64,000 bases of DNA from an uncultured Myxococcales bacterium (GCA_942492525.1 CALOFI010000005.1:64001-128000), one strand, 5' to 3'; positions 20,057 to 45,707 are shown, numbered from the stretch's first letter. A program made the numbers and translations. The notes: generated from the sequence alone by a model not told the origin.

Positions 20057-20131
20057 GGCGGTGAGTCTGGGTCGGATATGAAAAGGGAACGGGCCCGGCG
20101 CGCACGTGGGCGCGCCGGGCCCGTGGTCGGG

Positions 20132-23100
20132 CTAGCGACGGCGACGACGGAGCGAGAACGCCAGGCCGAGGCCGAGCAGGACGAGGCCCGCGCCGGCGCC
20201 GGTACCGGAGGTCTGGCAGCCACCACCGTTGACGACGACCTCGGGGTCATCGATCGGGGCGTTCACCACGAACGAGTTCTCCGGCGAGAAGTCGCTCATC
20301 GCGCCGGACTGGTCGTGCGCACGCGCGCGCCAGGTGTAGGTCTCGCCGTTGACCAGGCCGCCGTTGGCGTCGGCGATGGTCGTGGTCACCGAGGTCACCG
20401 TGCCGCTGACGCCGGTCACCGACGCGACCAGGTCGTCGCCCGCGTCGTACACCTCGACGGTGTAGGTGATGTTCTCGTTCTCGGGGTCGGTCGACGGCAT
20501 CCACGAGAACACCGGCAACGTCGTGTTGGTGCTGCCGTCGTCACCCGGGTTGGCCAGCGTCGGGACGCTGGGCGGGTCGTTCACCGTCGACACCAGGAAG
20601 CAGGCCACGTTGTAGACGCTGGTCGCCGCGCCGTCGTCGGAGCGAGCGCGCCAGCAGTACCGCGTGTCCTCGTCGAGGTCGGCCGCCAGGTTGAACGAGG
20701 TGTTCTGCTGGCCCTGCGCCGGCGCGTTGGCGGCGCCGTCGATGATGTTCACGAAGGTGTCCTCCTCGGCGAGGTCCCAGTCGTAGACCAGCTGGTCGAG
20801 GTCGGAGTCGTCGGCGTTGCTGATGATGAGGTCGGGGCGGATGTTGGCCACGACCACGCCGTTCTGCGGCGACAGCAGCACCGGCGCCTCGGGCGCGGCG
20901 TTGACGGTGGTCACGAAGAACTGACCGGTCGCGCTCCAGTCACCCGAGAGCCCGTCCTGATCAGACGCCCGCGCGCGCCAGTAGTACTGCCGGTCCTCCA
21001 TCAAGTCGACGTCGACCTGCCAGGTCGTGGTCCCGGCGCCGCCCGAGGCAACGCCCGCCTGCGAGGCCACCAGGTTCGACAGCGCGGGATCGGTGTAGAC
21101 GTCGTACTCGTAGGTGAGCACGTCGATGGGATCCGGGTCAGAGGCGTTGTCGATGATCAGGTTGGGGCGGAAGGAGTTGACCTGGCCGCCGAACGCCGGG
21201 GTGTTGATGCGCGGCGTGCCCGGCGCCTCGTTGACGGTGTTGACGTGGAACACGCACACCGACGAGTAGTTGCCGTAGGTGAAGGAGTCACGAGCGCGCG
21301 CGCGCCAGTAGTAGCTGACGTTCTCGAGCAGGTTGACCGGCACCGACCACGAGGTCTGGCCGACGCCCTGGGCGATCCCCGCCTCCTGGGCGATCTGCGT
21401 ACCCAGCGCCGGGTCGCTGTACATCTCGAACTGGTACGTCAGGGCGCTGGCCTGCGGGTCGGTCGCGTTGTCGACCACCAGCGTGGTCTGCAGGCTGTTG
21501 ATCTCCGTGCCGCACACCGGCGTCGCCGGGACCGGCGCCGTCGGACCGTCGTAGTCGCCCGGGTCGGTGCCGTTGACGAACTCGTCGAGGTTCGACGCGC
21601 CGTCGCTGTCCGGATCGCCCGAGGCGCCCTCGGACAGGTCGCCGAAGTTCGCGTTCTCCCACGAGTCGGGCAGCAGGTCGCCGTCGCTATCGACGAAGCT
21701 GACCGAGATGTTCCAGTCCTGGCAGGTCTGGCCGGCGTCGTCGTCGGTCACACAGATGCGGACCGGCGGCGCAGCGCCGACCGACTGCGCGAAGTCAGGC
21801 GTCCAGGTCACCGAGCAGGTCGGCGCGTCGAACGTCATGCCCGTGGGCATGACCGGGGCCGTGCAGACGTGGGTGTCGGCCGTGCCCGGATCGGTGTAGG
21901 TCGCCACGTAGGTGTACGGCGTGCCCTCGACCGCGGCCGCGCCGGGGGTGGAGGTGATCGTCGGGTTGACGTTGAGCACCGTGACGATGACGCCGTCGCT
22001 GCTCGCGCCGAGATCGTCGTCGGTGACGGTGGCGACCACGTTGTAGACGCCGTTGTCGGCGTACGCGTGGCTGGTGTTCTGGACCGTCGCGTTTGGGGTG
22101 CCGTCCGCGAAGTTCCAGTCGAACGTGTGCGTGTCGCCGGTGCCGGGATCGGTGAAGGTGACCGTCAACGGCTGCAAGGTGCCCTCGTTCACGCTGACGT
22201 CACCCATCGCGGTGGCGGTGGGCGCGACGTTGGTGATCGTCACCTGGACGGTGTCGGTCGAGACGCCGCCGATGCTGGTCGAGGTGATGGTGACGTTGAA
22301 GATGTCGTCGCCGATCGCGTCCTCGTCGTCGGGGAACGCGTAGACGACGTTCTGGCCGTTGAGGCTGTCGCCGTTGTCGAAGTCCCAGACGTAGACCGGG
22401 TTGCCGGTGCCGGGGTCGCTGTCGGCGCCCGAGAACGAGATCGCGGTGCCTTCCGGGGCCGCGACCGCGCTGGAGTCGCCGATGGCCAGCGGCGGGATCG
22501 CGTCGGGCGACAGCACCAGCACGGCCCAGGAGACGCGCAAGGGCGCCCCGGCGTTGGCGTCACTGGTGTTCACGCCACTGGTGTTGGTCCAGTTCCATCC
22601 GCCGTCCGCGGCCTGGTTGTTGATGAAGTAGCGCGAGAACAGCTGTGCCCAGTTGTTGCCACCGAAGGTGGTGATCTCGGGCACGGTCGCGCGTGCGGCG
22701 TCCTGCCAGTGCAGCATGCCGTAGTGGTTGCCCTGGCCATCGAGACGCGCGAAGTCCCCGGCGGTCACGAAGCGCTGGTTCCAGCCGATGCTCCCGTTGT
22801 AGCCGGCGAGAAAGCGAGTGCCGATGAACGTGAGCACCTCGTTGTGGTGCGTGCGGAGCTGGCCACGCGTGATCGCGTTGTAGCTGGGGAAGGCGAGCCG
22901 CGTGTCCGTCGCGTCGAAGGTGTTCGCGCCGACCCAGCCGGTGAGCAGGGTCGACAGCGCCGTGGTGGTGAAGCCCGCGGTGTTGCCCGTGGCGTAGCCG
23001 ATGCCACGCTCGCCAGCCGCGGGGACGGCGAAGCCGGTGGTCACGAACGTCGCGAGCCGGGTCTTGGCGATGTTGGGGACGATGACGCCCTGGTCAGTCG

Positions 23101-24220
23101 CGAACTCGTCGGCGTGCCAGAGCCCGGTGATGCCCCACAGCGTGGTCGAGCTATCGGTCCCGCCGCCGTTCTGGGTGTAGTACCAGCTGCCGTTGTCGTT
23201 CTGGGCGAAGACCATGCCGTCGACCATCTGCTGGAGGATGTGCTCCATGCGGCGGCCCAGCACGCGGGTCGGATCGCCGACCTGGGCGACGAAGCCGCCG
23301 AGGTTCGAGACCGCGATCGCCGACAGCATGTGTCCGTAGATGTAGACCTCGTCGGTGCCGCTGTACCAGAAGCCGAAGCCGTCGTCGGTGCCGAAGATGG
23401 GCTGCTTCTGGATCTCGGGGTAGAAGCCGGTCAGGTTGGCTTCGTCGGCGGCGCCGACCGCGAGGACCTGCAGCTGCGTCAGCAGGTAGTTGACGATGCG
23501 CATCGCGTCCTCGGCGTACGGGTCGTTGTCGAACCGCGCCGCGTTGTCCGCGGCGTCGGGCACGTCGCCGATGTACGCCGACGGGAACGCCGCGAAGTGG
23601 CCGTTCAAGGAGAGGCTCCACAGGAAGCCCGCGGAGGAGGCCTGGATGAAGCCGACGTTGATGCTACCGCTGGCCTGCGCACCCGACAGCGGGTTCGCTT
23701 CGTCGCCGGTGCGCGTCATCTGGTTGTGCAGGTACCAGAGCGCGTCGTCGACCGCGACGCCGCGCATGACCTGCAGCTGACGCTCGGTCGCGAGCGCCGG
23801 ATCGGCCGGCACATCGGCGAAGACACGCACCGGGTACGTGCCCTGGACCGTCTCGCCGTTCGACGTGACCGAGATGGTCGCGATGAACGTGGTGGTCACC
23901 GCCTGGTCCGGGTACGTGTAGATCGTCGAGAGGTTGTACCGGGCGTTCGCCGCGTTGCGGGTGAACGTCACGGGCGCCGAGCCGTCGCCGAAGTCCCAGG
24001 TGACGTCGTACGTACCGTTGCCGCCGCGCGCGATCGCCTTGAAGGTGGTCGCGTTGCCGTTGTAGGCCTGATGCGGCACGGCCGGATCAGTGGCGACCCA
24101 TGGCACCGGTATCACTCGCAAGTTCTGGGCCTCGGCGGCCTTGCCGGTGCCGAGCATGATGAACGCTGCGATGGCGCCCAGAACGACGCGCAGACCAAGC
24201 CTGTGGATGCGGGACGGCAT
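20132..24220 (-). CDS. giant (1362 aa) secreted multidomain surface protein: N-terminal enzyme-like domain, PKD domains, four tandem approx 95-aa FN3-like repeats, C-terminal MYXO-CTERM sorting tag
   Basis: RBS GAGGGGGAAG + ATG 24220; signal MPSRIHRLGLRVVLGAIAAFIMLGTGKAAEA. PKD-type motifs (VYVWDFDNGDS, HTFDWNFADGTP). Repeats carrying a YYWRARA / RYCWRAR / TYTWRAR core. C-terminus GGGCQTSGTGAGAGLVLLGLGLAFSLRRRRR matches the MYXO-CTERM architecture. Confidence 0.7.
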   Translation of the reverse strand: MPSRIHRLGLRVVLGAIAAFIMLGTGKAAEAQNLRVIPVPWVATDPAVPHQAYNGNATTFKAIARGGNGTYDVTWDFGDGSAPVTFTRNAANARYNLSTIYTYPDQAVTTTFIATISVTSNGETVQGTYPVRVFADVPADPALATERQLQVMRGVAVDDALWYLHNQMTRTGDEANPLSGAQASGSINVGFIQASSAGFLWSLSLNGHFAAFPSAYIGDVPDAADNAARFDNDPYAEDAMRIVNYLLTQLQVLAVGAADEANLTGFYPEIQKQPIFGTDDGFGFWYSGTDEVYIYGHMLSAIAVSNLGGFVAQVGDPTRVLGRRMEHILQQMVDGMVFAQNDNGSWYYTQNGGGTDSSTTLWGITGLWHADEFATDQGVIVPNIAKTRLATFVTTGFAVPAAGERGIGYATGNTAGFTTTALSTLLTGWVGANTFDATDTRLAFPSYNAITRGQLRTHHNEVLTFIGTRFLAGYNGSIGWNQRFVTAGDFARLDGQGNHYGMLHWQDAARATVPEITTFGGNNWAQLFSRYFINNQAADGGWNWTNTSGVNTSDANAGAPLRVSWAVLVLSPDAIPPLAIGDSSAVAAPEGTAISFSGADSDPGTGNPVYVWDFDNGDSLNGQNVVYAFPDDEDAIGDDIFNVTITSTSIGGVSTDTVQVTITNVAPTATAMGDVSVNEGTLQPLTVTFTDPGTGDTHTFDWNFADGTPNATVQNTSHAYADNGVYNVVATVTDDDLGASSDGVIVTVLNVNPTITSTPGAAAVEGTPYTYVATYTDPGTADTHVCTAPVMPTGMTFDAPTCSVTWTPDFAQSVGAAPPVRICVTDDDAGQTCQDWNISVSFVDSDGDLLPDSWENANFGDLSEGASGDPDSDGASNLDEFVNGTDPGDYDGPTAPVPATPVCGTEINSLQTTLVVDNATDPQASALTYQFEMYSDPALGTQIAQEAGIAQGVGQTSWSVPVNLLENVSYYWRARARDSFTYGNYSSVCVFHVNTVNEAPGTPRINTPAFGGQVNSFRPNLIIDNASDPDPIDVLTYEYDVYTDPALSNLVASQAGVASGGAGTTTWQVDVDLMEDRQYYWRARASDQDGLSGDWSATGQFFVTTVNAAPEAPVLLSPQNGVVVANIRPDLIISNADDSDLDQLVYDWDLAEEDTFVNIIDGAANAPAQGQQNTSFNLAADLDEDTRYCWRARSDDGAATSVYNVACFLVSTVNDPPSVPTLANPGDDGSTNTTLPVFSWMPSTDPENENITYTVEVYDAGDDLVASVTGVSGTVTSVTTTIADANGGLVNGETYTWRARAHDQSGAMSDFSPENSFVVNAPIDDPEVVVNGGGCQTSGTGAGAGLVLLGLGLAFSLRRRRR

Positions 24221-24318
24221 CTCTTCCCCCTCGGAAAAAAGTCGGTAAGCAACAGGAAGACGCGGGTTACCCCGAGTCCCCGCTGGCACTGTGCCCCAGG
24301 AACCTGATCGAGATCAAG

Positions 24319-26650
24319 TCACGTGCGCACGCGAATCGACTCGCCGTCGGAGCGGGCGATCACCATCAGCAACAGGCCGATGAGCAGCGCGCTCACCAGT
24401 GGCACTCGCGCCCACAAGAAAATGTTGGAGCGGAGCTCGTCGCCGGTCGAGGTCAGCGACCACGTCTCGCCGAGCGCGGCGTGCTCGGCGTCGACGGCCG
24501 AGAGGTACACACGTGCACCGAGCGCATCGATCGCCGCGCGCTCGGTGGGCGCGTCGAACGTCGCGAGCAACTGACCTGCCGCGGCGGGCCGCAGCACGAG
24601 GGTGCGAGCGCGCCCCGACCCCGCGAGGGTGATCACCTCGCCGGTGTGATCGTCATTCGAGGTGGCGCGGACTACGAGCTTTCCGGAGGAGTCGCCCGGC
24701 AAGACCTCGAGCGCGGCGCCGTCACGCGGCGTCGCGATCGCGCCGATCACCGTCGCCGCGATCGCCGCGTCGATCCAGGCGCCACGAAGGTCCGCGCTCC
24801 ACGCCAGCACCCGGCCGCGGCCGTGCGCGCGAGCGGCGAGCAGCGGCTGATCGCCGGCGTCGACCAGCACGATCGCGTCGGGCGCCGGCGCGCGCGCGAG
24901 CAGCTGCGCCACGGGCGTGCCTGCGGCCAGGCCTGCCGGCGCCGGCCCCAGGCTGGTCGTGTAGGCCGCGCGCACCTGCGTCCGCGCGGCCCCGCTGGCC
25001 ACCTGGTCAGCCGCGATCACGCGCAGCGCGGGCAGCGCGCCGGCGACGGTGCCGCGCAGCGCGTGCACGCGCCCGCCGCCGGCCAGCGCCAGCGCGTCGA
25101 GGCGCGCGCGCGCCTCGGCGTCCGGAGCGCCGGTCGCGATCACCTCGAGGCGGATCCCGGCCGCCGCGACCTCGCGCGCGGCGACCAGCGCGTCGGCCTG
25201 CGCCGCCGCGAAGCCGCCGTCGGTGATCAGCGCGACGACCCGACGGGTCGCGGCGGGTGCCGTGGTCAGGCGGCGGACCGCCTCGCGGAGCGCGGGCGCC
25301 GGATCGGTGCCGCCGCGCGCCGGCGGCAGGGTCGGGACGATCAGCGTCGCCGGCCGGGGCGCCAGCTCGACCCACGGGTGCGCGGCGACGTCGAACGCGA
25401 TCGCGCCGAACCAGTCGTCGGGGCCAAGCGCCGCGCCCGCGGCGGCCAGCGCCGCCGCGTCGGGTGTGGACCCACCCCGGCCGGCCGCTTCGATCGAGCC
25501 CGAGCGATCGACGACCAGCATCACCGCCATCGCCTCGGGCGCGGCCGCGCGCAGCGGCAGCAGCGGCTCGAGCGCGCCGGCGCCGCCGGCGGCCACCGCG
25601 GGGCCCGCGGCCCACAGCAGCGTGCCGCCATGCTCGACGAAGTCCGCCAGCGCCGGGGGCGCCTCGGCAGGCAACGCCGCCCCCGGGACGTCGTCGAGGA
25701 CCACCGTATCGATGGCGGCCAGCGCCGCCGGGGTGAGCGCGGCGGTGGTCGTGGCGTCGACGCGCAGGAGCCGGGCCGCGCCCGGCGCGATGACGTCGAT
25801 GATCGTGCGCGCGTGGTCGGTCACATCGACGGGATCCCCGGCGACCTCGAGCTCGACCTCGAGCTCGGCCAGGCCAGCGGCGTCGAGCACCACCGGCAGC
25901 GCGGTCGCGGTGCGGCCGGCCGCGACGTCCAGCGCGCGGCGCGCGAGCTCGCGGCCACGCTGGCGGACGGTGAGCGTCGCGGTGGTCGCGATCCGCGCCT
26001 CGACCACCACGGGCAGCGCGAACGCGCGCCCCGCGACGGCGCGCGCGGACGAGGCGGGCAGCTCGACCCGCGCGAGGTCGCCGGCGTCGATGGGCTCGAG
26101 CTCGAGGCGGCGGCCCAGCCGCGCCGCGGCGCCGGCCACCGCCGCCGGGCCGGTGACCGAGTCGCGGCCGTCGCCGATCACGATCAGCTCGCCGCCGGCG
26201 CCGGCGAGCGTGGCTCCGGCGAGCGCGAGCCCGGCGCCGAGATCCGTGGCGCGCGGGTCGAGGCCGAGCGCCGTGGCGTCGACGGCGCCGCGCCGCGCCC
26301 ACGCGATCACGCGCGCCGGCGGGCCGGGCGGCACCACGAGCCGCGCGCCCTCGGCGACGACGATCACCGCGGCGAGATCGTCGTCGTCCAGCGCCGCGGC
26401 GCGACGGGCGAGCGCGGCGCGCGCGGCCGCCTCGGCCGGCGCGACGCTCGCCGAGACGTCGAGGACGAAGACGACGCGGCGACCGCCGGCGCGGACCGGG
26501 TGCCACGCGGTCGCGCCGAGCGCGGCGACGATCGCGAGCCGCGCGAGCAGCGCGCCCCGGCGTGGCCGGGTGATCGCCGCCTCGAGCGCGACCAGCAGCG
26601 CGGCGAGCGCGAGCAGGCCGCGCAGCGGCCCGCCCCGCGCCGCGCGGGGA
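24319..26650 (-). CDS. vWA-domain protein (BatB-like), probably the C-terminal continuation of the BatA-like gene upstream (frameshift about 26640)
   Basis: TM helices LRGLLALAALLVALEAAI and LLARLAIVAALGATAW, then vWA MIDAS-like VVFVLDVSASV; second vWA-like VMLVVDRSGSIE...ALITDGG; C-terminal TM LVSALLIGLLLMVIA. The real N-terminal boundary is unclear because the upstream ORF overlaps in another frame. Confidence 0.45.
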
Positions 26651-27902
26651 TCGCCGGCACCGCAGGCGCGATCGCCGGCGCGCGCACGTCGGGCACGTCG
26701 GCGCGGCCCGACGCCGCGAACGGCGGCGCCGCCAGCGCGTCGGCGAGCACGACCGGCAGGAGCGGCCCGTCGAGCGCGACCGCCAGGCGCAGCGTCGGCG
26801 GTGACGCGTCGCGCTCCAGGCCCAGCGCGGCGTGCGCGCCGGCGCGCAGCCACACCTGCGCGGGGTCGATCGCAAAGCTGGCGCCGGCGTCGACCGCGAC
26901 CGGCGGCGTCGCGTCGAGCAGCGCCGGGGTCGCGCCCGGCAGCGGCGCGCCGGGCACCGCCTGCAGCGGCGCGGGCGCCCCGTCCGCCGCGTCGGCCACG
27001 ACAAGGCGCGCGCGGGCCGGGCCGCGCCACGCGGTCGAACGCACCACGGCGATCACGTCGGCGGCGGGCGCGTCGACGCGCGCGACGGTGGGTAGCACGG
27101 CCAGCGCGCGCGCCACCGGCGTGTGCGCCAGCGCCGGATCGATCCACACCCGCGCGGGGACCAGCGCGGGCACCTCGATGGTCGCGGTGTCGTCGTCGGG
27201 CAACTCGTCGGCGCCGGCCGGCTCCAGCGCGACCGACACCGCCTCGTCGCCATCGCCCGCGTACGGCAGCACCGCGATGAGCTCGTCGCCGACCGCGATC
27301 AGCGGCGCGCGGCCAAGCAGCCCGGCGGCGCCGTGCGCGACGATCGCGGCGGGGGCGGCGACCGCGCCGTGGCGCGCCACCGCGACCACGATGCGGCCCC
27401 GACGCGGCGCCAGCGGCTCGCGATGGAAGCGCGCGTGGACGATCGCCGCGTCATCGCCGATCGGCGGCGCCGACGCCACCGCGACGACGCGCGCGCCCGG
27501 CAGCGCCGCGGCGGTGGCCTCGATCAGGCCGGCGGCGTCGACGGTGCCGCGGCCGGGCACGATCGCGTCGGCGGCAGCGCGCGCGGGCAGGCGCCGCGGC
27601 GGCACGCCCGGCGCGGCCAGCACGACCTCGTCGAACCCGGCGAGCCGGGCGCGGACGGCGTCGACGTCGCGGCCGCGCGTGGCCGAGAGGTCGACGACCA
27701 GCACCCGCACGCCGTCACGCGCGCTGCGCACCGGCCCGGCCGCGGCCAGCGCGATCAGCGCGATCGCCGCGACCAGCAGCAGCCGGGCGCGCCGCGCCGG
27801 GCCGTGCCGGGTGCGCGCGGCGGCGCCGGCGTCGATCAGGAACCACAGCGGGTGCACGACGGTGCGCCCGGCGGCGCGGCGCGCCAGCCACAGCGCCGGC
27901 AC
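26364..27902 (-). CDS. BatA-like aerotolerance-type N-terminal double-TM / vWA-related protein (frame degenerates to junk at its 3' end, about 26640)
   Basis: MPALWLARRAAGRTVVHPLWFLIDAGAAARTRHGPARRARLLLVAAIALIALAAAGPV is the BatA N-terminal pattern (two TM helices separated by a short loop). The C-terminal about 90 codons are Arg/Ser/Pro junk while a good frame continues in the overlapping ORF. Confidence 0.45.
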   Translation of the reverse strand: MPALWLARRAAGRTVVHPLWFLIDAGAAARTRHGPARRARLLLVAAIALIALAAAGPVRSARDGVRVLVVDLSATRGRDVDAVRARLAGFDEVVLAAPGVPPRRLPARAAADAIVPGRGTVDAAGLIEATAAALPGARVVAVASAPPIGDDAAIVHARFHREPLAPRRGRIVVAVARHGAVAAPAAIVAHGAAGLLGRAPLIAVGDELIAVLPYAGDGDEAVSVALEPAGADELPDDDTATIEVPALVPARVWIDPALAHTPVARALAVLPTVARVDAPAADVIAVVRSTAWRGPARARLVVADAADGAPAPLQAVPGAPLPGATPALLDATPPVAVDAGASFAIDPAQVWLRAGAHAALGLERDASPPTLRLAVALDGPLLPVVLADALAAPPFAASGRADVPDVRAPAIAPAVPAIPARRGAGRCAACSRSPRCWSRSRRRSPGHAGARCSRGSRSSPRSARPRGTRSAPAVAASSSSSTSRRASRRPRRPRAPRSPVAPRRWTTTISPR

Positions 27903-27938
27903 GACCGCGGCCAGCAGCGCCAGCCCCGAGCGGCCAGG

Positions 27939-28816
27939 TCAGCTCCACGACGCCACCAGCTCGCCGGCGGCGTCGACCAGCCGCGGCGGACGCGCGGCGT
28001 CGAGCACCAGCAGCGGGACGCCGCGGTGGCGCACCGCGACCGCGCAGCGCTCGCGCCAGGCCGCGACCCGCGCGGCGAAGCCGAGCGCGGCCGCGTCGTC
28101 GACGCGCCGGGACACGTCGGCCTCGGCGCAGCGCAGGCGATCGGCGTCGGCGTCCAGCCGCGCGTCGGCGGCGTCGACGAGGTGGACGCAGCTGATCCGG
28201 CGCGCCAGCCGGGTCACCGCCGCGGCCAGCTCCTCGGGCGGCGCCGGATCGGCGAAGTCGGTGAGCAGCACGACCTGCTCGTCGGCGCGCACCGCGCGGC
28301 GCGCGCGCTCGAGCGCGGGCAGAGCGCGACCCGCCCGCCCGCCGGCAGCCCCGCGATCCGCGCCAGCGCCCGCCGCGCGCCGCCGGCGTCGAGGCGCGCG
28401 CGATCGGCGCCGCCGCGACCGGCGCTGCCCAGCGCGTCGATCGCGATCGGCAGCGCCGCGGCGCCGGCGACCACGGCGAGCGCGGCGGCGAGCCGCGCGG
28501 CGAGCGCGCGCTTGCGCGGCGTCATCGAGGCCGAGTCGTCGATCACGAGGCGCAGGCCGCCATCGCCCTCGGCGCGGTGTCGGCGCGCCCACAGCTCGCC
28601 GGTGCGCAGCCGCGCGCGCCAGTCGATGGCGCGCGGATCGTCGCCGGGCCGGAACGGATCGTGGCCGTGCAGCTCGTAGCCGCGGCCCAGCCGCGCGGTC
28701 GCCGAGGTGCCGGCGGCCTCGCCGGCGCGACCACGCACCCGCGCGGCCAGCCCGACCAGCTCGCGCAGCTCGTCGCCGCTCAGCAGCGCGTCGCCTGGCC
28801 CCGTGGCGATCGTCAT
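27939..28816 (-). CDS. DUF58-family protein (MoxR-associated), apparent frameshift about 28320-28335
   Basis: N-terminal part MTIATGPGDALLSGDELRELVGL...GYELHGHDPFRPGDDPRAIDWRARLRTGELWARRH...LRLVIDDSASM is the DUF58 signature (frame a, ends ..RIAGLPAGG). C-terminal part ..ALPALERARRAVRADEQVVLLTDFADP.. reads in another frame to stop 27939. The switch lies in a gcgggcgggcggg run. Confidence 0.5.
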
Positions 28817-28836
28817 CGGCGTGCCCGGCCCCGCCG

Positions 28837-29829
28837 TCACGACGCCGCGGCGAGCACGTCGGCGACCAGCGCCGCGCGCGAGGCGCCCTCGGCCTCGGCG
28901 GCCCAGTCGAGCAGCAGCCGGTGCTCGATCACCGCCGGCGCCAGCGCGCGGACGTCGTCGCGGGCGACGTGGGCGCGCCCGGCGGCGAGCGCGCGGACCC
29001 GCGCCGCGGCGAGCAGGCCGCGCGCCGCGCGCGCCGAGACCCCGCCGCGGACCGCGCCGCGCACCGACGCGGGCGCGGTGTCGGACGATGGATCGGTGGC
29101 GCGGATCAGGCGCGCGACGAAGCGCGCGACCTCGGGCGCGACCACCGCGTCGGCGGCGAGCGCGCGCAGCGCCAGCAGCGTCGTGCGATCGATCACCGGC
29201 CGCGCGCTGGCCAGCGCGGCGTGCGGATCGCCCTCGAGGATGCGGACCAGCTCGTCCTCGGTGAGGCCGGCGACCGGCAGGCGCAGCAGGAAGCGGTCGA
29301 GCTGCGACTCGGGCAGCGGATACGTGCCCTGATCGAACGGGTTCTGGGTGGCGAGCACCACGAACGGCTCGTCGAGCGCGCGGGTGCCCTCGGGGGTGGT
29401 GACCTGCCGCTCCTCCATCACCTCGAGCAGCGCCGACTGGGTGCGCGGGCTGGCGCGGTTGAGCTCGTCGGCGAGCACCAGGTTGGCGAAGATTGGCCCG
29501 GGCCGGAACACCAGCTCCTCGAGGCCGCCGGCGCCGCGGCGCAGCGTCGGCCCACCGAGGATGTCCGCGGGCAGCAGGTCCGGGGTGAACTGCACGCGCG
29601 CGAACTCGAGGCCGGCGACGCGGGCGACGGTCTTGCACAGCAAGGTCTTGCCGGTGCCCGGCGGCCCCTCGAGCAGGACGTGACCGCCCGCGACCAGGGC
29701 GGTGAGCACGCCATGGATGGTCTCGTCGCGGCCGATGATGACCTCGCCGATCGCGTGCTTGAGCGCGAGGAAGCGCTCGCGGAAGTGCGCGACGGGATCG
29801 CCGTCGACGACGGGCCGTGCCGCGCTCAT
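28837..29829 (-). CDS. MoxR-family AAA+ ATPase
   Basis: Walker A LLEGPPGTGKTL, Walker B VLADELNRASPRTQSALLEVMEE, sensor regions and the MoxR-specific layout; 330 aa. ATGA overlap with the upstream gene. Confidence 0.85.
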   Translation of the reverse strand: MSAARPVVDGDPVAHFRERFLALKHAIGEVIIGRDETIHGVLTALVAGGHVLLEGPPGTGKTLLCKTVARVAGLEFARVQFTPDLLPADILGGPTLRRGAGGLEELVFRPGPIFANLVLADELNRASPRTQSALLEVMEERQVTTPEGTRALDEPFVVLATQNPFDQGTYPLPESQLDRFLLRLPVAGLTEDELVRILEGDPHAALASARPVIDRTTLLALRALAADAVVAPEVARFVARLIRATDPSSDTAPASVRGAVRGGVSARAARGLLAAARVRALAAGRAHVARDDVRALAPAVIEHRLLLDWAAEAEGASRAALVADVLAAAS

Positions 29830-30651
29830 GGCGTGGCCTCGAGGTACGCCGTGACCAGCGCGCGGTAGCGCGGCGGCACCGCCGCCGTCGCCGCCGACGC
29901 GCCGGCGAGCGGCGCCGTGGACGTCAGGCTTTCGTCAGATGACAGCGCGCTGACGGCACCGAGACCGCGACCGACGCTCGTGCCGCCACCGCCACCGCTG
30001 CCGGTACCGTCGCCGTCGCCGCTGCCACTGCCGTCGGCGCTGCCGTCGCCGTCGGCGCGCCGTCGCGTGCCGCTTCCGTCGCCGTCGCCATCGCCATGGG
30101 GCGCGGTTGCGGCTGCCGGAGCCGTCACCGGCGCGGTCGCCGTCGCCGCCGCGGTGGCCGACGCCACCACGGTGGCCGCGGTCGAACCGCTCGCCGCGGC
30201 CACGCCGCTGCCGGTGCCGCGTCCGGGAACCAGGTGCGGCGAGGACGGCGACGATCAGCGCGCTGACGACGGTGATCGTGGCGGCGACCGCGGGGAGGAA
30301 GAGGGGCGGACGCGGTCGCGTGCTGGCGCGGCCGGCGGCGGCGTGCAGGACGTGCGGGGCCAGGGGCGTGGCGCTGCGGCCGGAGACGACGGCGTCGCCA
30401 CTGATGATGAGATCCTGCGCGTCGAGCCAGGTCACGGCGGCGGCGCGGGAGATCGTGCGCCAGCCCAGCGCGGCGCCGAGCGCGGCCGCGAGCAGGATGA
30501 TCACGGCCGGCGCCGAGGGCAGCAGGAGCAGCGCCCCCGTGGCGATGGTGGTGGCGGCGATCAGGCCGAGCGCGGCGCGACGCGCGGCGAGCCGGTGCCG
30601 CACCGAGGACACGGCGTCAGCGAGGCGGCTCGCGTCTTCCCCGAAGAGCAC
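29826..30651 (-). CDS. membrane protein with Gly/Asp-rich low-complexity C-terminal half, translationally coupled to moxR; apparent frameshift about 30200-30260
   Basis: N-terminal TM helices (LGLIAATTIATGALLLLPSAPAVIILLAAALGAALGW; FLPAVAATITVVSALIVAVLAAPG) in one frame. A GDGDGDGSG...GSGDGDGTGSGGGGG tract ending ..PPRYRALVTAYLEATP* runs in the +1 frame, and its stop overlaps the MoxR ATG (ATGA). Confidence 0.35.
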
Positions 30652-30660
30652 GGCGGGACG

Positions 30661-31754
30661 TTACCACAGGAGCCCGAGGCCCACTCCCGTGCCGACGAGC
30701 GCGCCGGTGGCCGCGGCGAGCGGACCGGCGGGGAGCCGCCGGGTCGTGGCGGCCGCGATCGGCGCGGTGATCAGCACGATGCCGATCGTGGTGCCGTCGC
30801 CGCGGTCGCCGAGGAGCGCGGCCCACGCGGCGGCGATGGCGGTGAGCGCCGCCGGCCAGGTGGCGGCGGCGAGATCGCCGACGACGAGGGTCGCCGCCCG
30901 CGCCCAGCGCGGCGCGCGGGTCTCGCGCAACATCGCGGGCCACGCGCGCGTGGTCGCCGCGTCCGCCGACGCGGCGAGCGCGACGGTGACCACCGCGCCG
31001 GCGGTGACCAGGCGCGCCAGCTGGGCGAGCGCCTCGAGCGAGCCCTCGCCGTACCAGAAGCCTTCGTGCGCGGCGACCGAGACGGCGCAGGCCGCGAGCC
31101 AGAGCGCGACCACCGCGCCCAGCGCCAGCGCGGTGCGCGTGGTCGCGACGGCCGCGGCGAAGCGCGCGAGCGCCGCGGCGCCGCCGGCTCGACGCGCGGT
31201 CGCCGGCGACGTGGTCGTCGCGGCGCCGCCGGCGGCGGGCGCGGCCCCGGCCACCAGCTCGATCACGCGATCGACCTGGCCGCGCGTCGCGCCACCGGTC
31301 CACAGCATCGCGCCGTCGCCCGCCCGCACCCGCTCGGCGGCCGCGACGACCTCGGCCTCGGCGTCGTCGGCGAGCGCGCCGTCGACCAGCCAGACCGCGC
31401 CGCGCAGCGTGCGCCCCCGCGCCAGCGCCCGCGCGTCCGGCGACCGGACGACAGCGCCGGGCGGATGGTCGAGCGCGCGCGCGTCGGTGGCGCGGCGCCG
31501 CGGGCGAGCGCGGTCCACAGCGCCGCGGCGGCGCGCTCGGCGCCGGGTGGTAGCGGCTCGCCGCCGCGCACGACCAGCGCCGGCGCGCGCCGGACCACCT
31601 CGCCGGCGACCACCGGGCGACGCCCGGCGATCGCGTCGAGCAGGGCCGAGACGTCGGCGGCCGGGCCGTCGACGCGGACGACCTCGCCGGCGCGCAGGCG
31701 CGTCGAGATCGGCGCCATGCCCGCCCGCGCGACCACCGCGCGCAGCTCGATCAC
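30661..31754 (-). CDS. hypothetical membrane protein of the MoxR/DUF58/vWA cluster (DUF4350-like context), apparent frameshift about 31480
   Basis: GTG 31754 overlaps the upstream stop (GTGA). N-terminal part VAVIELRAVVARAGMAPISTRLRAGEVVRVDGP... is in one frame; the C-terminal part (..GRTLRGAVWLVDGALADDAEAEVV...MLWTGGATRGQVDRVIEL... plus TM helices ALALGAVVALWLAACAV.., ..IGIVLITAPIAAA..) is in another. Confidence 0.35.
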
Positions 31755-32899
31755 GGCGACTCCGGCGGCGCGCGCGGCGCGCGCGCGAGCGCGCCGGTCC
31801 AGCCGCGCGCGTCGGCGGCGACGAAGCCGCGGATCCTGTAGCTGCCCGCGCCGGGGACGGCGCCGGCGAGGCCGACGACGCCGAGCGCCCCGCCGCCGGG
31901 GTCGCCCGAAACCTCGATCCACAGCTCGTCGCCCAGCGCGGCGGCGCCGAGCAGCTCGCTGGCGCCGACCTCGGCGACGACCCAGTCCTCGCCGCCACCG
32001 GCGTCGGCGCGCACGCCGCGCACGGCGATCGCCGGCGCGGTCGCGAGCAGCAGCGGCAGCAGCGTCGCGGCCGCGCACGCGGCGACGGCGAGCGTCGCGG
32101 CCGCCCGGGGCCAGCGCCGCCGCAGCGCGACCGCGCCGAGCAGCGTCGCGGCGAGGCCGAGCCCGACCAGCGCCAGCGCGCGCGGCACCGCCGCGATCGG
32201 CGCGGTCTGCCGGGTGCGAGGCAGCGCGAGCGGCGCCGCACGCGCGCAGCGCGGCGGCGCGGCGTCGGCCACGTCGAGCCGGCACACCGTGCCCCCCGCG
32301 GCCAGGTGTCGCCGGATCGTGCGCGCGGCGAGCTCGCCGAGCGCCGCGATCGGCCGGTCGATGACCACCGCGCCGGCCCCGAACAGCGCCTGCCAGCGCG
32401 CCGGCACCGCCTCGGGCGCGACCACCACCGGATCGCCCAGCTGCTCGCCGCGGCGCCACACGTCGACGCGGGGCAGCAGCGCCGCGGCGCCGTCGGTCAC
32501 GACGATCACCGGTCGCGCCACGACCCGGACCGCCGGCACCTCGCCGTCGGCACCGTCGGCGCCGCGGCTCACGCGCACGGCGCGCGCTGGCAGCGCGCTG
32601 ACGCCCGGGCCGACCCGGGCGGCCAGCGTCACGGTCGCACGGCCGTGGGCCGCGAGCTCGATCGGCTGCGGCGCGGCGCCGGCCACCGCGACTTGCACGC
32701 GCGCGGGCATGGCGAGCCGCGAGCGCACCTCGACCACGACGACGTCGATGCCGCCGGCCGGCACGACCCCGCCGACGCCGCGATCGACGACGACCTCGAC
32801 CGCCAGGCGATCGTCGGCCCGGGCCGGCGACGGCGCGGCCAGCGCCGCGGCCGCCGCGACCAGCGCGATCAGCGCCGCCGACGCCCGCGCCGCGCCCAT
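31751..32899 (-). CDS. secreted protein with C-terminal TM helices, function unknown
   Basis: Signal peptide MGAARASAALIALVAAAAALAAPSPARA; C-terminal hydrophobic segments (ALALVGLGLAATLLGAVAL, LAVAACAAATLLPLLLATAPAIAV); 382 aa. Confidence 0.4.
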   Translation of the reverse strand: MGAARASAALIALVAAAAALAAPSPARADDRLAVEVVVDRGVGGVVPAGGIDVVVVEVRSRLAMPARVQVAVAGAAPQPIELAAHGRATVTLAARVGPGVSALPARAVRVSRGADGADGEVPAVRVVARPVIVVTDGAAALLPRVDVWRRGEQLGDPVVVAPEAVPARWQALFGAGAVVIDRPIAALGELAARTIRRHLAAGGTVCRLDVADAAPPRCARAAPLALPRTRQTAPIAAVPRALALVGLGLAATLLGAVALRRRWPRAAATLAVAACAAATLLPLLLATAPAIAVRGVRADAGGGEDWVVAEVGASELLGAAALGDELWIEVSGDPGGGALGVVGLAGAVPGAGSYRIRGFVAADARGWTGALARAPRAPPESP

Positions 32900-32904
32900 C
32901 ACCC

Positions 32905-34146
32905 TCAATTCATCGCGTCGAGCGCGTGCTCGAGCGCGAGCAGCGCGCGCGACGTGGCGATCGCCGGGTTGTTCTCCCAGTACGTCTCGTCGGTGTTGGC
33001 CCACGAGCCGTCGGGCTTCTGCATCGCGAGCAGCTTGGTGGTGAGCTCGGCCGGCCAGTCGTGCGACTGGCCCTCGGCGTCGACGAGCGTGCGGCTGCCC
33101 AAGAGGCCCAGCGCGCGCGCCATCATGTGGTGGTGGTAGTAGAGCCCCTTGAGGCCCAGGCCCGGGTTCTCGTCGACCGAGTAGTTGGCCTTGATGTAGT
33201 CGAGCGCCGCCGCGACCCGCGGATCCTGGGCGTCGGCCTGGGTGTAGAGGAAGCCGGCGATGCCGGCGTAGGTCATGCTGCCCGACGACGCGGTCGCGCC
33301 GGCCTTGGACGCGCCCGGCTTGTAGACGAAGCCGCCGTCGTTGCCGGTCCACGGCTGGTCGTTGGACTCGCTGCGGTTCTGGCAGCGCTCGAGGAACTTC
33401 TGCGCGCGGGCCAGCACGTCGGGGCGATCGGCCAGGGTCGAGTCCTTGAGCGCGTCGAGCGCGAAGTGCAGGTTCGACAGGTCGGCGTCGGGGTGGGTCG
33501 CGTCGGTGCCGTAGCCGACGCCGCCGTAGTTGGGATCCTTGCCGTCGACCTTGGTGTTCTCGCCGAACTGCTTGTCGGCCAGCCAGCGCTGGGCCTTCTC
33601 GACCAGATCGGTGTTGATGTGGGCCTTCGCGAAGGCGAGCGTCGCGATCGCGGTGACGTACACCGGGTAGTCCTTGTCGTAGATCGCGCCGTCCGGCTTG
33701 GCCAGCTTGGCGAGCGCGGTGAGGCTGGGCTCGACCCGCGGATCGCTGGCGGCGACGCCGTCGGCCGAGACCATCGCCAGCGACGCCAGCGCGGTGGTGC
33801 CCGGGTGACCGCCGATCAGGCCGCCGTCGCCGCGCGACGCGGCGAGGAAGTCGATGCCGCGCGCGATCGCGGCGTGGATCGCGACGGCGTCGGGGCCCGC
33901 GGCCTTCGCCGGGGCCGCGTCGGCCGGCGCCTTGTCGGCCGGCGTCTTGGCGCCGACCGGATCCTTGGCCGGCGCGGGCGCCGCCTCGTCCTTCTTCTTG
34001 CACGCGGGCGCGGCCAGCAGCGCGAGGCCGACCAGGGCGACGGTCGCGACGCCGCGCCGGCGACGCAGCCCGACGAGGGACAGCAACATGCCGGCGGCGG
34101 CGAACGCTCCGGCGGTCCAGATCCAGGGAACCATATGCATCTCCAT
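32905..34146 (-). CDS. membrane-anchored/lipoprotein prenyltransferase / squalene-oxidase-repeat (terpenoid-cyclase-like alpha/alpha toroid) protein
   Basis: N-terminus MLLSLVGLRRRRGVATVALVGLALLAAPACKKKDEA (hydrophobic anchor plus lipobox-like Cys). Ala/Pro/Lys-rich linker. Repeats with the QW-like pattern of squalene-hopene-cyclase/prenyltransferase repeats (QRWLADKQFGEN..DG, QKFLERCQNR...QPWTGNDGGF, LDYIKANYSVD, LLAMQKPDGSWANTDETYWENNP). Alternative starts at 34089-34146. Confidence 0.55.
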   Translation of the reverse strand: MEMHMVPWIWTAGAFAAAGMLLSLVGLRRRRGVATVALVGLALLAAPACKKKDEAAPAPAKDPVGAKTPADKAPADAAPAKAAGPDAVAIHAAIARGIDFLAASRGDGGLIGGHPGTTALASLAMVSADGVAASDPRVEPSLTALAKLAKPDGAIYDKDYPVYVTAIATLAFAKAHINTDLVEKAQRWLADKQFGENTKVDGKDPNYGGVGYGTDATHPDADLSNLHFALDALKDSTLADRPDVLARAQKFLERCQNRSESNDQPWTGNDGGFVYKPGASKAGATASSGSMTYAGIAGFLYTQADAQDPRVAAALDYIKANYSVDENPGLGLKGLYYHHHMMARALGLLGSRTLVDAEGQSHDWPAELTTKLLAMQKPDGSWANTDETYWENNPAIATSRALLALEHALDAMN

Positions 34147-34640
34147 GACGGCTGCAGGGATGCGCCCGTAGAGGGCGCGCTCGTGAAGGACATCGAGGCC
34201 CAGCGCCGCGGACGCGGCAAAGGGCGGACTTGCGGCGTAGGCGGCGGTGCGGACGGCGGGTGCCCGGGTGGCGCCGACGGCCTGCGCGAGCGCTTCACCC
34301 GGCGCGGGCGCGGCGATCAGCGCGAGCACGACGAGCGCGCTGCCGGCCGCGGCGAGCCCGCGGTCGAGGCTGGTGCGACACAGCGTCGCGGCCAGGCCGG
34401 CGGCGGCGAGCGCCTCGGCGGCGAACAGCGCGCGCGTCACCAGCAGGCCGCGCGGAGCTCGCCGGGCCCGTCGGCGAGCCGCCACGCCGCGGCCGCGAGC
34501 ACCGCGTGCGCACCGACGACGAACAGCAACAGCCGCAGCCGGGCCCGCGGGGCCTGCGCGGTCGCGCCCAGCGCGGCGTAGGCGACCGCGGTCGCCGACG
34601 CCTCGATCCAGAGCACCAGTGCGGCCTGGGCGGTCGTCAC
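34137..34640 (-). CDS. small polytopic membrane protein directly upstream of, and possibly fused to, the prenyltransferase-repeat gene (frameshift about 34440)
   Basis: GTG 34640; helices ALVLWIEASATAVAYAALGA, LLLFVVGAHAVLAAAAW, then, after a frame change, LFAAEALAAAGLAATL and SALVVLALIAAPAP. Reading runs into the prenyltransferase-repeat ORF without an intervening stop in that frame. Confidence 0.25.
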
Positions 34641-34723
34641 GCGCGCGGATGTTGGACCAGAACCCGGGCCAGGTCCACGGTCCACGCCCGCGCCGGTGTG
34701 CGATCTCCGCATCGGGTATAACG

Positions 34724-35596
34724 GCGCTGATGGCAGACCAACCTGAGCACGTCCTGGCGGCCCTGCTCGGCCCACGCGCGCGGCCCGACGGGCTGACCTG
34801 GCTCGACGCGACGATCGCCGAGATCGAGGTCGGCCGCGGCGAGCTGCCGGTGGCGTTCCCGGCGGTGTCGCGGCTGATCGGCCGCGGCGGGCTCGACGCG
34901 CCCGGCGCGGAGGTGGTCACCGCCGGCGGCGACACGATCGCGCTGGCGGCCTGGCGCCTCGACGACGCCGCCCGGGTCCGGCTGCTGCTCGCGGCTGCGC
35001 GCCACGCGCCCGGCCAGGCGCTGGCCACCGCCGGCCAGCTCTACGAGCACGGCGACGCGCGCGAGCGCGCCGGCGTGCTGCGCGCGCTCTCGCTCCTGCC
35101 CGGCGCCGACGACGACGCCACCGCGCTGCCGGTGATCCTCGACGCCATGCGGGTGACCCAGGGCGAGATCTTCGAGGCCGCGATCTGCGACAGCCCGTAC
35201 GCGTCGCGCCACCTACCGCAGCACGAGTGGCGCAAGGCCGTGCTCAAGGCGCTGTTCATCGGCATGTCGATCCGCCGGATCGCCCACGTCGAGGCGCGCA
35301 CCGACGCCGAGCTGGCGCAGAGCCTGCTCGACTTCGCCGCCGAGCGCGAGGCCGCGTCGCGCAGCGTGCCGCACGAGCTGTGGCCGCTGGCCGCGCGGTT
35401 CCCACCGCCCGGCCTGGCCGCCAAGCTGCTCGGCTACCTCGAGCACCCGGCGCCCGAGCACCGCGCCGCCGCGGCCGAGGCGCTGGCCGCGCTGGTGCCC
35501 GCCGATCCGCGGCTGCGCCCGTTCCTCGTCGATCGCGGCGCTCGCGAGCGCGACGACACCGTCAAGGATGCGCTGCGGCGCGCCATCGCCGGCTGA
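34724..35596 (+). CDS. EboA-like protein (first gene of ebo/edb-type clusters; no known catalytic domain)
   Basis: 290-aa soluble Ala/Leu/Arg-rich helical protein placed immediately upstream of the TatD / TIM-barrel / phosphodiesterase genes. Assignment is mainly by conserved gene context; sequence is helical-repeat-like (..VLRALSLLPGADDDATALPVILDAMRV.. / ..LLGYLEHPAPEHRAAAAEALAAL..). Confidence 0.45.
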   Translation, partial: ALMADQPEHVLAALLGPRARPDGLTWLDATIAEIEVGRGELPVAFPAVSRLIGRGGLDAPGAEVVTAGGDTIALAAWRLDDAARVRLLLAAARHAPGQALATAGQLYEHGDARERAGVLRALSLLPGADDDATALPVILDAMRVTQGEIFEAAICDSPYASRHLPQHEWRKAVLKALFIGMSIRRIAHVEARTDAELAQSLLDFAAEREAASRSVPHELWPLAARFPPPGLAAKLLGYLEHPAPEHRAAAAEALAALVPADPRLRPFLVDRGARERDDTVKDALRRAIAG

Positions 35597-35618
35597 CCCG
35601 CCTGCCCCGGAGACCCTC

Positions 35619-36488: not shown

Positions 36489-36492
36489 CGCG

Positions 36493-39793: not shown

Positions 39794-39850
39794 GGCCCGA
39801 CCGTCTCACGGCGGCCGCGCACGGTGCGACATCGCGGGGCGCGCGCGGCG

Positions 39851-41200: not shown

Positions 41201-41257
41201 GCCGTCTCCTCGCAGGCGCGCGCCGGCAGCGACGCGAGCGGGCCTTCCCGCGACGCG

Positions 41258-41434
41258 CCCTTCGACTCCGGGCTCGCTTCGCTCGCCCTGCGCTCAGGGT
41301 GAGCGGAGCTGGTGGTGTGGCTGCGACGAGAGGGTTCATCAGCAAGAGTCGAGCTGCAGACTGCGGGCGCGATCTCGATCACGGTCCGCTCACCCTGAGC
41401 GCAGGGCGAGCGAAGCGAGCCCGGAGTCGAAGGG
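41258..41434. repeat. perfect 49-bp inverted repeat (arms 41258-41306 and 41386-41434) separated by a 79-bp spacer; MITE/REP-like or long-hairpin RNA element
   Basis: Arm 1 cccttcgactccgggctcgcttcgctcgccctgcgctcagggtgagcgg; arm 2 is its exact reverse complement. A partial third copy of the inner motif (ggggtgagcg..gggggttcatcgcgac) lies about 41521-41567; the spacer contains gagggttcatcagc. Confidence 0.8.
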
Positions 41435-41584
41435 CGGGTTGCACACTGTCGGCCTGGAGGATGGTGTTCTCGGCGCCGGGCCTCGGCTCGCCCCGAGGCT
41501 GACCGTCGATGGAGCTCGCGCCGCTCGGGGTGAGCGTCGTCGCCACAGCGGGGGTTCATCGCGACGACCATCCCGGCTCCGCCG

Positions 41585-45641: not shown

Positions 45642-45707
45642 ACCGCCGCCACCGGGCCGGCCGCGCCGCACGCGCGGTGCGCCCGGCGTCGGCGCTATAC
45701 TGCGGGC

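Follow-up and report, generated by a model that had tools for sequence, protein, structure and literature searches.

In a 64,000-nucleotide (nt) stretch of DNA from an uncultured Myxococcales bacterium (GCA_942492525.1, CALOFI010000005.1:64001-128000; hereafter the window, meaning the whole stretch), eight co-directional genes on the minus strand run from position 34616 to 20132. They encode, in order, a membrane-anchored alpha/alpha-toroid protein, a protein referred to here as C, a degenerate ATP-binding cassette (ABC) half-transporter (DE), a transmembrane (TM)-hairpin protein (FG), a MoxR ATPase, a DUF58 protein, a double-vWA protein (KL) and a giant MYXO-CTERM protein. The order of this eight-gene unit is conserved across a deep myxobacterial clade, the transporter has lost its ATPase motifs, and the toroid has lost the catalytic acid of the terpene cyclases to which it is related. 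To our knowledge, few bacterial gene clusters that lack a known client are as widespread as the MoxR-DUF58-vWA ("Bat-like") operons, and the window cluster is a lineage-specific elaboration of this known but poorly understood module. The reading we favour, with a probability of about 0.5, is that the eight genes form a single operon, divergent from eboA, which elaborates a Bat-like MoxR-DUF58-BatA/vWA envelope module, and that its products act as an envelope complex with toroid partners. Specific candidate partners for such a module can be named from this locus and, in particular, from its intact relatives: an exported cyclase-fold family lacking the acid, a transporter lacking its ATPase motifs, a toroid-bearing surface protein, and the neighbouring ebo genes.

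Gene models and reading frames

The window has a G+C content of about 75%, rising to 76-82% between 26 and 32 kb, and raw lists of open reading frames are therefore of no use. Gene models were built from a frame plot of G+C at third codon positions (GC3), translations of candidate frames, hidden Markov model (HMM) scans, and tblastn of the proteins of an intact reference operon, L085 (GCA_046597055.1), onto the window. Minus-strand coding is unbroken from 34.6 kb to 20.1 kb in the frame plot, with GC3 of at least 0.93 throughout, and frame changes outnumber stop/start junctions. The L085 operon encodes proteins of 569, 402, 381, 299, 329 (MoxR), 294 (DUF58), 1228 and 1374 residues, joined by overlaps of 4-10 nt or separated by gaps of 38 nt or less. 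Alignment of these proteins to the window reveals one frame switch in each of five of the eight genes (toroid, DE, FG, DUF58 and KL), and the operon is resolved as follows, with all frame changes located by tblastn of the L085 proteins.

32905..34616, minus strand: gene 1, toroid protein, delimited by the L085 alignment; frame change at 34458/34449 (L085 residues 1-54 correspond to 34616..34458 in frame -3, and residues 57-568 to 34449..32911 in frame -2, 71% identity)
31751..32899, minus strand: gene 2 (C), intact; full-length, single-frame alignment to the 402-residue L085 protein, 48% identity
30661..31754, minus strand: gene 3 (DE), ABC half-transporter; frame change between 31497 and 31428
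29826..30651, minus strand: gene 4 (FG), TM-hairpin protein; frame change between 30238 and 30209 (L085 residues 2-133 correspond to 30624..30238 in frame -2, and residues 169-297 to 30209..29838 in frame -3)
28837..29829, minus strand: gene 5, MoxR-class AAA+ ATPase of 330 residues, intact; AAA_3 (1.4e-53, residues 50-182), AAA_5 and AAA_lid_2 (1.9e-10)
27939..28840, minus strand: gene 6, DUF58 protein, vWA-like with the metal ion-dependent adhesion site (MIDAS) motif DDSAS; PF01882 at 36.8 bits (cut-off 23.4); frame change at about 28316-28319 (L085 residues 11-169 correspond to 28792..28316 in frame -1, and residues 169-293 to 28319..27945 in frame -3)
24319..27938, minus strand: gene 7 (KL), membrane protein of about 1200 residues; VWA_2 (1.4e-12, two stretches) and VWA_3 (3.5e-7); frame change at 26682/26568 (L085 residues 9-424 correspond to 27923..26682 in frame -3, and residues 464-1160 to 26568..24469 in frame -2)
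20132..24220, minus strand: gene 8, giant protein of 1362 residues, intact; PKD_4 (1.4e-21), Ig_Rha78A_N (5e-12) and a MYXO-CTERM tag
20089..20124, minus strand: terminator-like hairpin with a 15-bp stem containing 14 G-C pairs, followed by TCCCTTTTCA, 8 nt past the giant stop codon

Genuine start/stop overlaps are present at C/DE (GTGA at 31754), FG/MoxR (ATGA at 29829) and MoxR/DUF58 (GTGA at 28840), and the same overlaps are found in the intact relatives. The first-pass annotation noted several such overlaps; these three are sound, while two others that it would have met, at 34440 and 26367, only look like GTGA boundaries as a result of the frameshifts. That annotation had counted about 11 genes where the intact homologues in L085 and L086 show eight; its entries for one or more membrane proteins at the upstream end, for two further membrane proteins, and for separate BatA-like and multi-vWA proteins correspond to halves of single frameshift-split genes. 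Its domain calls (MoxR, DUF58, vWA, PKD/FN3, MYXO-CTERM and toroid) are all borne out by the HMM scans, and it had overlooked the toroid domain on the giant, the degenerate ABC half-transporter and the recurrent ebo neighbourhood. Correct annotation of the window copy of the operon requires gene models that allow for frameshifts.

The five frame changes could reflect either errors of assembly or genuine decay of the operon. In favour of decay, five of the eight genes are disrupted; a protein-database entry 100% identical to gene 1 (P0038, 511 residues, start at 34440), which is the gene call of the source itself, carries the same truncation, with close homologues all being 560-590 residues long; and none of the disruptions lies at a long homopolymer, there being only three G/C runs of six or more in the window. 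In addition, the KL start codon cannot be placed, as the first in-frame start (27902) falls downstream of the point at which the L085 alignment sets in. Against decay, in-frame stops are absent from every segment of the split genes, GC3 is maintained, and MoxR, C and the 1362-residue giant are intact. Identity to L085 is as high on the 3' side of each shift as on the 5' side (80% and 72% for DUF58, 63% and 71% for the toroid), and the disruptions are located in the stretch of 76-82% G+C. Similar breaks occur in the giant gene of a Myxococcales metagenome-assembled genome (MAG), L083 (GCA_016707895.1), in which L083:621-4660 occupies at least four frames and is called as separate proteins of 379 and 628 residues, and this suggests that assemblies of related MAGs are prone to indels. 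The lack of in-frame stops, the undiminished identity after the shifts, the G+C-rich position and the similar breakage in L083 make indels introduced during assembly the likelier cause of the five frameshifts, ahead of biological decay.

The hairpin following gene 8 probably marks the end of the operon. Five terminator-like sites are reported between 16500 and 35500, with about two expected by chance, and the hairpin is by far the strongest of them. No terminator-like site is located between any two of the operon genes, including KL and the giant, and one weak minus-strand match is found inside the giant gene. A promoter scan returned nothing in 19 kb, and is uninformative at 75% G+C.

Components of the module and its toroid proteins

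The core of the operon resembles the Bat, or MoxR-DUF58-vWA, operons of Bacteroides, Leptospira, Borrelia (bb0170-0176), Francisella and Rhizobium, in which a MoxR protein (AAA_3) is followed by DUF58 and a membrane-anchored, BatA-derived vWA protein, and with which it shares translational coupling, an envelope location and the lack of a known client. MoxR has Walker A (GPPGTGKT) and Walker B (LADELN) motifs and neither a signal peptide nor a TM segment, and is 82% identical to its L085 counterpart. KL has hydrophobic anchors at both its N- and C-termini and two vWA domains, each with an intact DxSxS MIDAS motif (DVSAS and DRSGS). The BatA models (PF07584 and TIGR02226) match neither the K segment of the window protein nor the L085 and L086 homologues. 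However, the BatA_N domain (PF07584) scores 30.8 bits (cut-off 25.9) in the syntenic L108 homologue and 22.2 bits in L143, and is carried also by L002 and L003. The L108 homologue combines BatA_N, two vWA domains and a GATase1_like domain, and L002 encodes a 1506-residue BatA-vWA-GATase1_like protein. KL thus appears to derive from a BatA-vWA-vWA(-GATase1-like) architecture that is still recognisable in L108, L143, L002 and L003, and the previous designation of this region as BatA-like holds for its ancestry, traced through L108, and not as a domain match within the window.

The operon departs from Bat operons in several respects. It lacks BatC/D/E-type tetratricopeptide repeat (TPR) or SH3 proteins, HMM scans finding no TPR, SH3 or BatD family in any of its eight genes; BatA and BatB are fused in one double-vWA protein of about 1200 residues in which BatA_N is no longer HMM-detectable; and it adds the TM-toroid protein, C, the degenerate ABC half-transporter, the TM-hairpin protein and the terminal giant, with ebo genes adjacent. 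Also comparable are the Actinomycetota and Polyangiaceae clusters L002 (Ca. Aldehydirespirator), L003 and L001, which share the gene order of the operon: a secreted or TM protein, ABC components, a low-complexity TM-hairpin protein with a C-terminal RYF motif, MoxR, DUF58 and a BatA-vWA-vWA-GATase1_like protein. In the position of DE, however, L002 has a canonical ABC ATPase (Walker A GPNGAGKT) and a separate ABC-2 permease, and by tblastn L001-L003 show no toroid, giant or ebo genes. The pairing of MoxR with vWA in a multicellular-type bacterium, together with a weak bpMoxR match (53.6 bits), also recalls the MoxR-vWA-beta-propeller ternary conflict systems (Kaur et al. 2020, PMC7159879), although the AAA_3 match of the window protein is far higher (180.7 bits) and there is neither a beta-propeller nor an effector domain. 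A role as a defence system was rejected, since PADLOC gave only weak AAA-type matches to MoxR (mad8, 23.8 bits) and none to the other seven proteins.

Gene 1 encodes a polytopic N-terminal membrane domain, a conserved Cys-Lys-Lys-Lys, and a single alpha/alpha toroid of the terpene-cyclase/prenyltransferase-repeat superfamily that is predicted to be periplasmic. Its SQHop_cyclase_C match (24.3 bits) falls just below the cut-off of 26.1, and a profile of the toroid family matches squalene-hopene cyclase (SHC; 1gsz) with an E value of 8.5e-21. The alpha/alpha toroid with QW-type repeats that is characteristic of class II terpene cyclases, such as SHC, MstE and drimenyl diphosphate synthase (8paj), is thus present in the family. 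Unlike in SHC, the toroid is a single domain, it is exported or membrane-anchored, and the proton-donor Asp is missing: the SHC motif PDVDDTA aligns with PDLSNL in the toroid family, where D203 and N206 do not vary and the position of the central Asp is taken by Ser. The motifs CQNRSESND and NDGGFxY are also invariant and special to this family. Because the general-acid DxDD (DVDD) is replaced by DLSN, gene 1 was rejected as a canonical, protonation-type class II cyclase. The toroids, of about 320 residues in gene 1 and about 425 in the giant, do not have the two-domain beta-gamma architecture of SHC and oxidosqualene cyclase, but monodomain cyclases exist (MstE, 8paj), and a single domain alone thus does not exclude catalysis. 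We consider it more likely that the toroids bind ligands or are non-canonical enzymes than that they are cyclases of the protonation type.

A second set of features lies in the membrane domain of the toroid protein. The motif MEMHMxPWxWT is strictly conserved there (33990-34140 on the minus strand in the window, and in the L085 and L086 homologues), and about 40 residues beyond it is the conserved Cys followed by KKK, always in frame with about 200 upstream residues. This arrangement resembles an internal lipoprotein signal with Lys at position +2, which in Myxococcus lipoproteins is a signal for retention in the inner membrane. The protein had been described as lipid-anchored, which is not established: the Cys (…APACKKK) lies about 200 residues in, after three to five hydrophobic segments, and the lipobox is non-canonical.

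The DE protein has the order nucleotide-binding domain (NBD) then transmembrane domain (TMD) and, in a predicted model of moderate confidence (pLDDT 72), an ABCG/ABCH-like type V (ABC-2) half-transporter fold; over NBD and TMD alike it matches ABCH, ABCG1 and ABCG5/8, which transport lipids and sterols. The family is a small one, with 11 relatives found among 5.8 billion proteins. Its members differ from the ABCG/ABCH half-transporters in having no Walker A Lys, no Walker B Glu and no LSGGQ signature; in all ten aligned homologues the corresponding positions read GPxxAVSA, VW[LI]VDG and xxRG. Because both Walker motifs are degenerate, DE is predicted to be ATPase-dead. An hhalign comparison of a three-sequence DE alignment with a real ABC ATPase was not significant, with the register nonetheless right.

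The two remaining small proteins are less informative. C has a signal peptide, a beta-rich N-terminal part, two hydrophobic segments (by hydropathy) and a C-terminal domain, and no Pfam or NCBIfam match in the HMM scans. FG consists of an N-terminal TM hairpin, a low-complexity Ala/Asp/Gly tract (GDGDGSG) and a conserved C-terminal VPxRYRALVxAY, and proteins of the same plan with a C-terminal RYF motif are encoded directly upstream of MoxR in L002 (543 residues) and L003 (616 residues).

The giant has a signal peptide, an Ig-like sandwich (residues ~35-134), an alpha/alpha toroid (~146-570), PKD domains, a thrombospondin type 3 (TSP3)-like acidic linker, repeats, and a MYXO-CTERM tag at residues 1332-1362 (TIGR03901 24.6, cut-off 20; TIGR03382 19.9, cut-off 15.85). 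The C-terminal part contains four FN3/Ig-like repeats of about 109 residues with the motif YxWRARA, which are visible by eye and were not reported by a self-BLAST of the protein. Like the MYXO-CTERM surface proteins such as TraA of Myxococcus, it has a C-terminal GGGC, a hydrophobic stretch and RRRRR, as well as a signal peptide and an Ig-like/PKD stalk, but its distal domain is a toroid of the terpene-cyclase fold and its gene is the last of a MoxR-vWA operon. An AlphaFold model of residues 1-640, built with 33 homologues (pLDDT 88.8), comprises the signal helix, the Ig-like sandwich and the toroid at 146-570, such that the proteins on both sides of the MoxR core are predicted to carry a toroid fold. 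The fold is shared only at the level of structure and profile, as BLASTP finds no sequence similarity between the N-terminus of the giant and the gene-1 toroid (E 0.19), and phmmer with either against PDB sequences gave nothing useful. The conserved positions of the giant family include no DxDD. The giant gene is preceded by a 98-nt gap of lower G+C with a strong ribosome-binding site (RBS), GAGGGGGAAGAG. A foreign origin was rejected, since the GC3 of the gene (0.94) is the same as that of the rest of the operon; its lower G+C is due to amino-acid composition. In the literature, we found no paper describing an association of MoxR/vWA with a terpene cyclase, prenyltransferase or squalene.

Conservation of the gene order

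The full window order is present in Kofleriaceae-like genomes at toroid identities of 46-72%: in L084 (Kofleriaceae), L085 and L086, with the L087 contig ending inside the vWA gene. In L086, a 3.1-Mb metagenome contig, identity is 46-52% for the toroid, 60% for MoxR, 33% for KL and 49% for the giant N-terminus. A MoxR-centred scan, with one genome per species, yielded 80 loci that are mostly generic Bacteroidota Bat operons, and tblastn of the window proteins B-G, K and the giant against these gave no matches beyond DUF58 and vWA. The nearest MoxR relatives outside the clade are those of L001, L002 and L003 (44-53% identity), which are accompanied by DUF58 and a multi-vWA protein.

In each of the window-type loci examined (the window, L084-L087, L108, L143 and L168), the toroid gene is found together with MoxR-DUF58-vWA. 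A second layout, in which an ABC-2 permease, the toroid, MoxR, DUF58 and BatA follow one another, is found in an Armatimonadota genome (L088) and several metagenome contigs. In a metagenome scan using the toroid alignment, in which 80 loci were kept, MoxR lies downstream of the toroid on the same strand in 10 of the 80, and in four of the 22 whose downstream sequence extends for 5 kb or more; the spacing is either 30-160 nt or 3.1-3.6 kb. We estimate that chance adjacency would account for well under 1%. An ABC-2 permease is immediately upstream of the toroid in nine of the 80 loci. The toroid is therefore a recurrent partner of MoxR-vWA and ABC-2 modules, although most of the family lives elsewhere.

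The family of the giant N-terminal domain is small, with 37 matches. The giant lies 3' of the KL/vWA gene, on the same strand and at a distance of 38-100 nt, in the window, L084, L085 and L086, and in L083 a C-terminal vWA fragment is followed by the giant. A distant homologue in L168 (27% identity, with a toroid-like N-terminus and PKD) is located 6 kb from the cluster in the opposite orientation. The giant-MoxR linkage is restricted to one clade. The first-pass annotation had proposed that the module is dedicated to assembling the flanking proteins or displaying them at the surface, and that this would fail if they were adjacent by accident. The toroid-MoxR and KL-giant neighbourhoods are conserved across relatives, which argues against accident. 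The idea that the module serves its neighbours thus draws partial support, strong for the toroid protein and clade-limited for the giant, while assembly or display as the service in question is conjecture.

In the Armatimonadota-type layout, a conserved protein of about 800 residues follows the BatA-vWA gene (L088:15550-17934, L121:8721-11138). It has only weak matches, to alpha-2-macroglobulin MG2 (E 0.001) and vWA; in this layout it may take the place of the giant.

A proposed envelope complex and alternative readings

In the reading that we favour, MoxR, as a cytoplasmic AAA+ motor, and DUF58, as a cytoplasmic vWA-like adaptor, would act on an inner-membrane complex composed of the double-vWA protein KL, the ATPase-dead DE, the TM-hairpin protein FG and the membrane domain of the toroid protein. 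By analogy, the vWA/MIDAS domains of KL would face the periplasm and engage the periplasmic toroid domain of gene 1, and in the window clade their contacts would extend to the second toroid, which the MYXO-CTERM-anchored giant bears at its tip. A periplasmic location was demonstrated experimentally for the vWA domain of the Borrelia BatA-like protein BB0173 (PMC5700661).

Several points weigh against this reading. The envelope topology is drawn from analogy and from hydropathy, a crude guide in sequences rich in Ala, and the reading requires cytoplasmic MoxR and DUF58 to act on periplasmic partners, a difficulty common to every Bat-like system. About 80% of the evaluable toroid-family loci have no MoxR nearby, and the family is not restricted to the MoxR system. 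Homologues of the giant N-terminus lack MoxR within 10 kb in Anaeromyxobacter (L081), a myxobacterial MAG (L082), Vicinamibacterales (L169) and Eisenbacteria (L170/171), and the related MoxR clusters L001-L003 and L143 lack the giant. The 98-nt gap before the giant could hold a promoter of its own. Finally, if the frameshifts were real, the operon would be non-functional in this organism.

One alternative is that the giant is an independent surface adhesin or enzyme that has been co-inherited in a single clade, leaving the toroid protein as the only true partner of the module. The unrelated neighbours of its homologues in L081, L082, L169 and L170/171, the MoxR clusters lacking it, and its own strong RBS and preceding gap are all compatible with this, and the conserved genes downstream could be its real partners. 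Nevertheless, we consider it unlikely, as same-strand adjacency with gaps of 38-100 nt persists down to 49% identity in the giant N-terminus and 33% in KL (L086), a strong terminator follows the giant with none separating it from KL, the distant L168 homologue represents an independent association, and the giant has the same fold class as the toroid protein of the cluster. The downstream genes are a radical-SAM gene (18755-20056, minus strand; NF045502 variant_rSAM, 146 bits) and, 3' of it, an OmpA-family gene with a thrombospondin type 3 repeat (17010-18053, minus strand). The order giant, radical-SAM (76% identical), OmpA also occurs in L083, where the OmpA protein has 634 residues and an N-terminal Phenol_MetA_deg barrel; the window copy may be split around 18054-18750.

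A second alternative concerns the ebo genes, which lie next to the operon in the window as follows.

34617..34730, unstranded: intergenic region of about 115 nt between the divergent gene 1 (start from the L085 alignment) and eboA (ATG at 34731)
34731..39002, plus strand: eboA (EboA domain and HEAT), eboB (TatD), eboE (xylose-isomerase-like TIM barrel) and eboF (phosphodiesterase)
40364-43650, minus strand: second ebo block, with AP_endonuc_2 (TIM barrel), UbiA (eboC) and an Ino1-type inositol-phosphate synthase

The HMM matches include EboA (NF035938, 147 bits), UbiA (65.8 bits), TatD, AP_endonuc_2 and Phosphodiest. The eboA-F set is thus present beside the operon, except that the Ino1-type synthase stands in for eboD, as has been described for thallusin producers among the Actinomycetota (bioRxiv 10.64898/2026.05.21.724671). 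The window-type cluster adjoins ebo/Ino1 genes in seven of the eight loci in which the upstream side is visible, and does so in three arrangements: divergent (the window, L084, L086 and L087), co-directional (L143), and with Ino1 directly upstream (L108 and L168). The L143 array comprises EboF, EboA, EboB, EboD, an O-methyltransferase, an unknown gene, a substrate-binding protein (SBP), a permease, an ABC ATPase, the toroid, further genes, MoxR, DUF58 and vWA. Within it, L143:4929-9882, between ebo and toroid-MoxR, holds the O-methyltransferase, a 481-residue protein and a complete SBP-dependent ABC system, all co-directional.

The product of ebo, for which a link to the algal morphogen thallusin was recently made, has to arrive in the periplasm or outside the cell. 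The operon could be an ebo accessory serving a prenylated cyclitol- or quinoline-type lipid that the UbiA prenyltransferase and cyclitol enzymes of ebo would make. DE and its complex would move the lipid, the periplasmic toroid would bind its isoprenoid part or process it non-canonically, the toroid of the giant would receive or display it, and MoxR, DUF58 and vWA would assemble, gate or power DE. Several observations are in keeping with this: the recurrence of ebo/Ino1 at seven of eight window-type loci, with no ebo genes seen near the Armatimonadota-type or MoxR-less toroid loci; the place of both toroids, by structure, in the isoprenoid-cyclase/prenyltransferase superfamily; and the resemblance of DE to lipid and sterol transporters. 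Published work also ties ebo to the delivery or export of a precursor to the periplasm (PMC6282210) and to the drimane meroterpenoid thallusin, for which the cyclisation step has no assigned enzyme and no dedicated cyclase is known (10.64898/2026.05.21.724671). Set against these are the DLSN of the toroid, which is not that of a canonical class II cyclase, the full operon in L085 with no ebo genes in 6.3 kb upstream, the report that thallusin producers of other phyla need only the ebo genes (10.64898/2026.05.21.724671), and the derivation of the adjacency mostly from related, probably myxobacterial, high-G+C genomes. A connection with prenylated metabolites derived from ebo is plausible; as an explanation of the operon, we regard the accessory role as doubtful. 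In the same vein, the handling of an isoprenoid-bearing molecule would be thematically in line with the toroid fold, with the likeness of the DE fold to lipid transporters and with the ebo neighbours, a hypothesis to which we give little weight.

In a still more specific form, the operon would be the missing envelope half of the ebo pathway, with MoxR-DUF58-vWA driving or gating the ATPase-dead DE, which would pass an ebo-derived prenylated cyclitol or thallusin-like meroterpenoid to the tethered periplasmic toroid and then to the surface toroid on the giant. We think this quite improbable. If the ebo link were true, it would tie together the function of the Bat-like module, the function of the exported toroid and the handling of the ebo product, providing a small-molecule client for a Bat-like MoxR module and a function for the large exported "terpene cyclase/mutase family". 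Weakest is the reading in which the five or more frameshifts are real mutations in an operon that is decaying and non-functional in this organism, which the evidence from the reading frames set out above makes very unlikely.

Two further genes are located at the edges of the ebo blocks. A 261-residue AAA_21/ABC-like ATPase is encoded between the two blocks (39020-39805, minus strand), and a Ser/Thr protein kinase gene lies just beyond the Ino1 gene (45642-47285, plus strand), with a kinase also present at the matching edge of the L086 locus.

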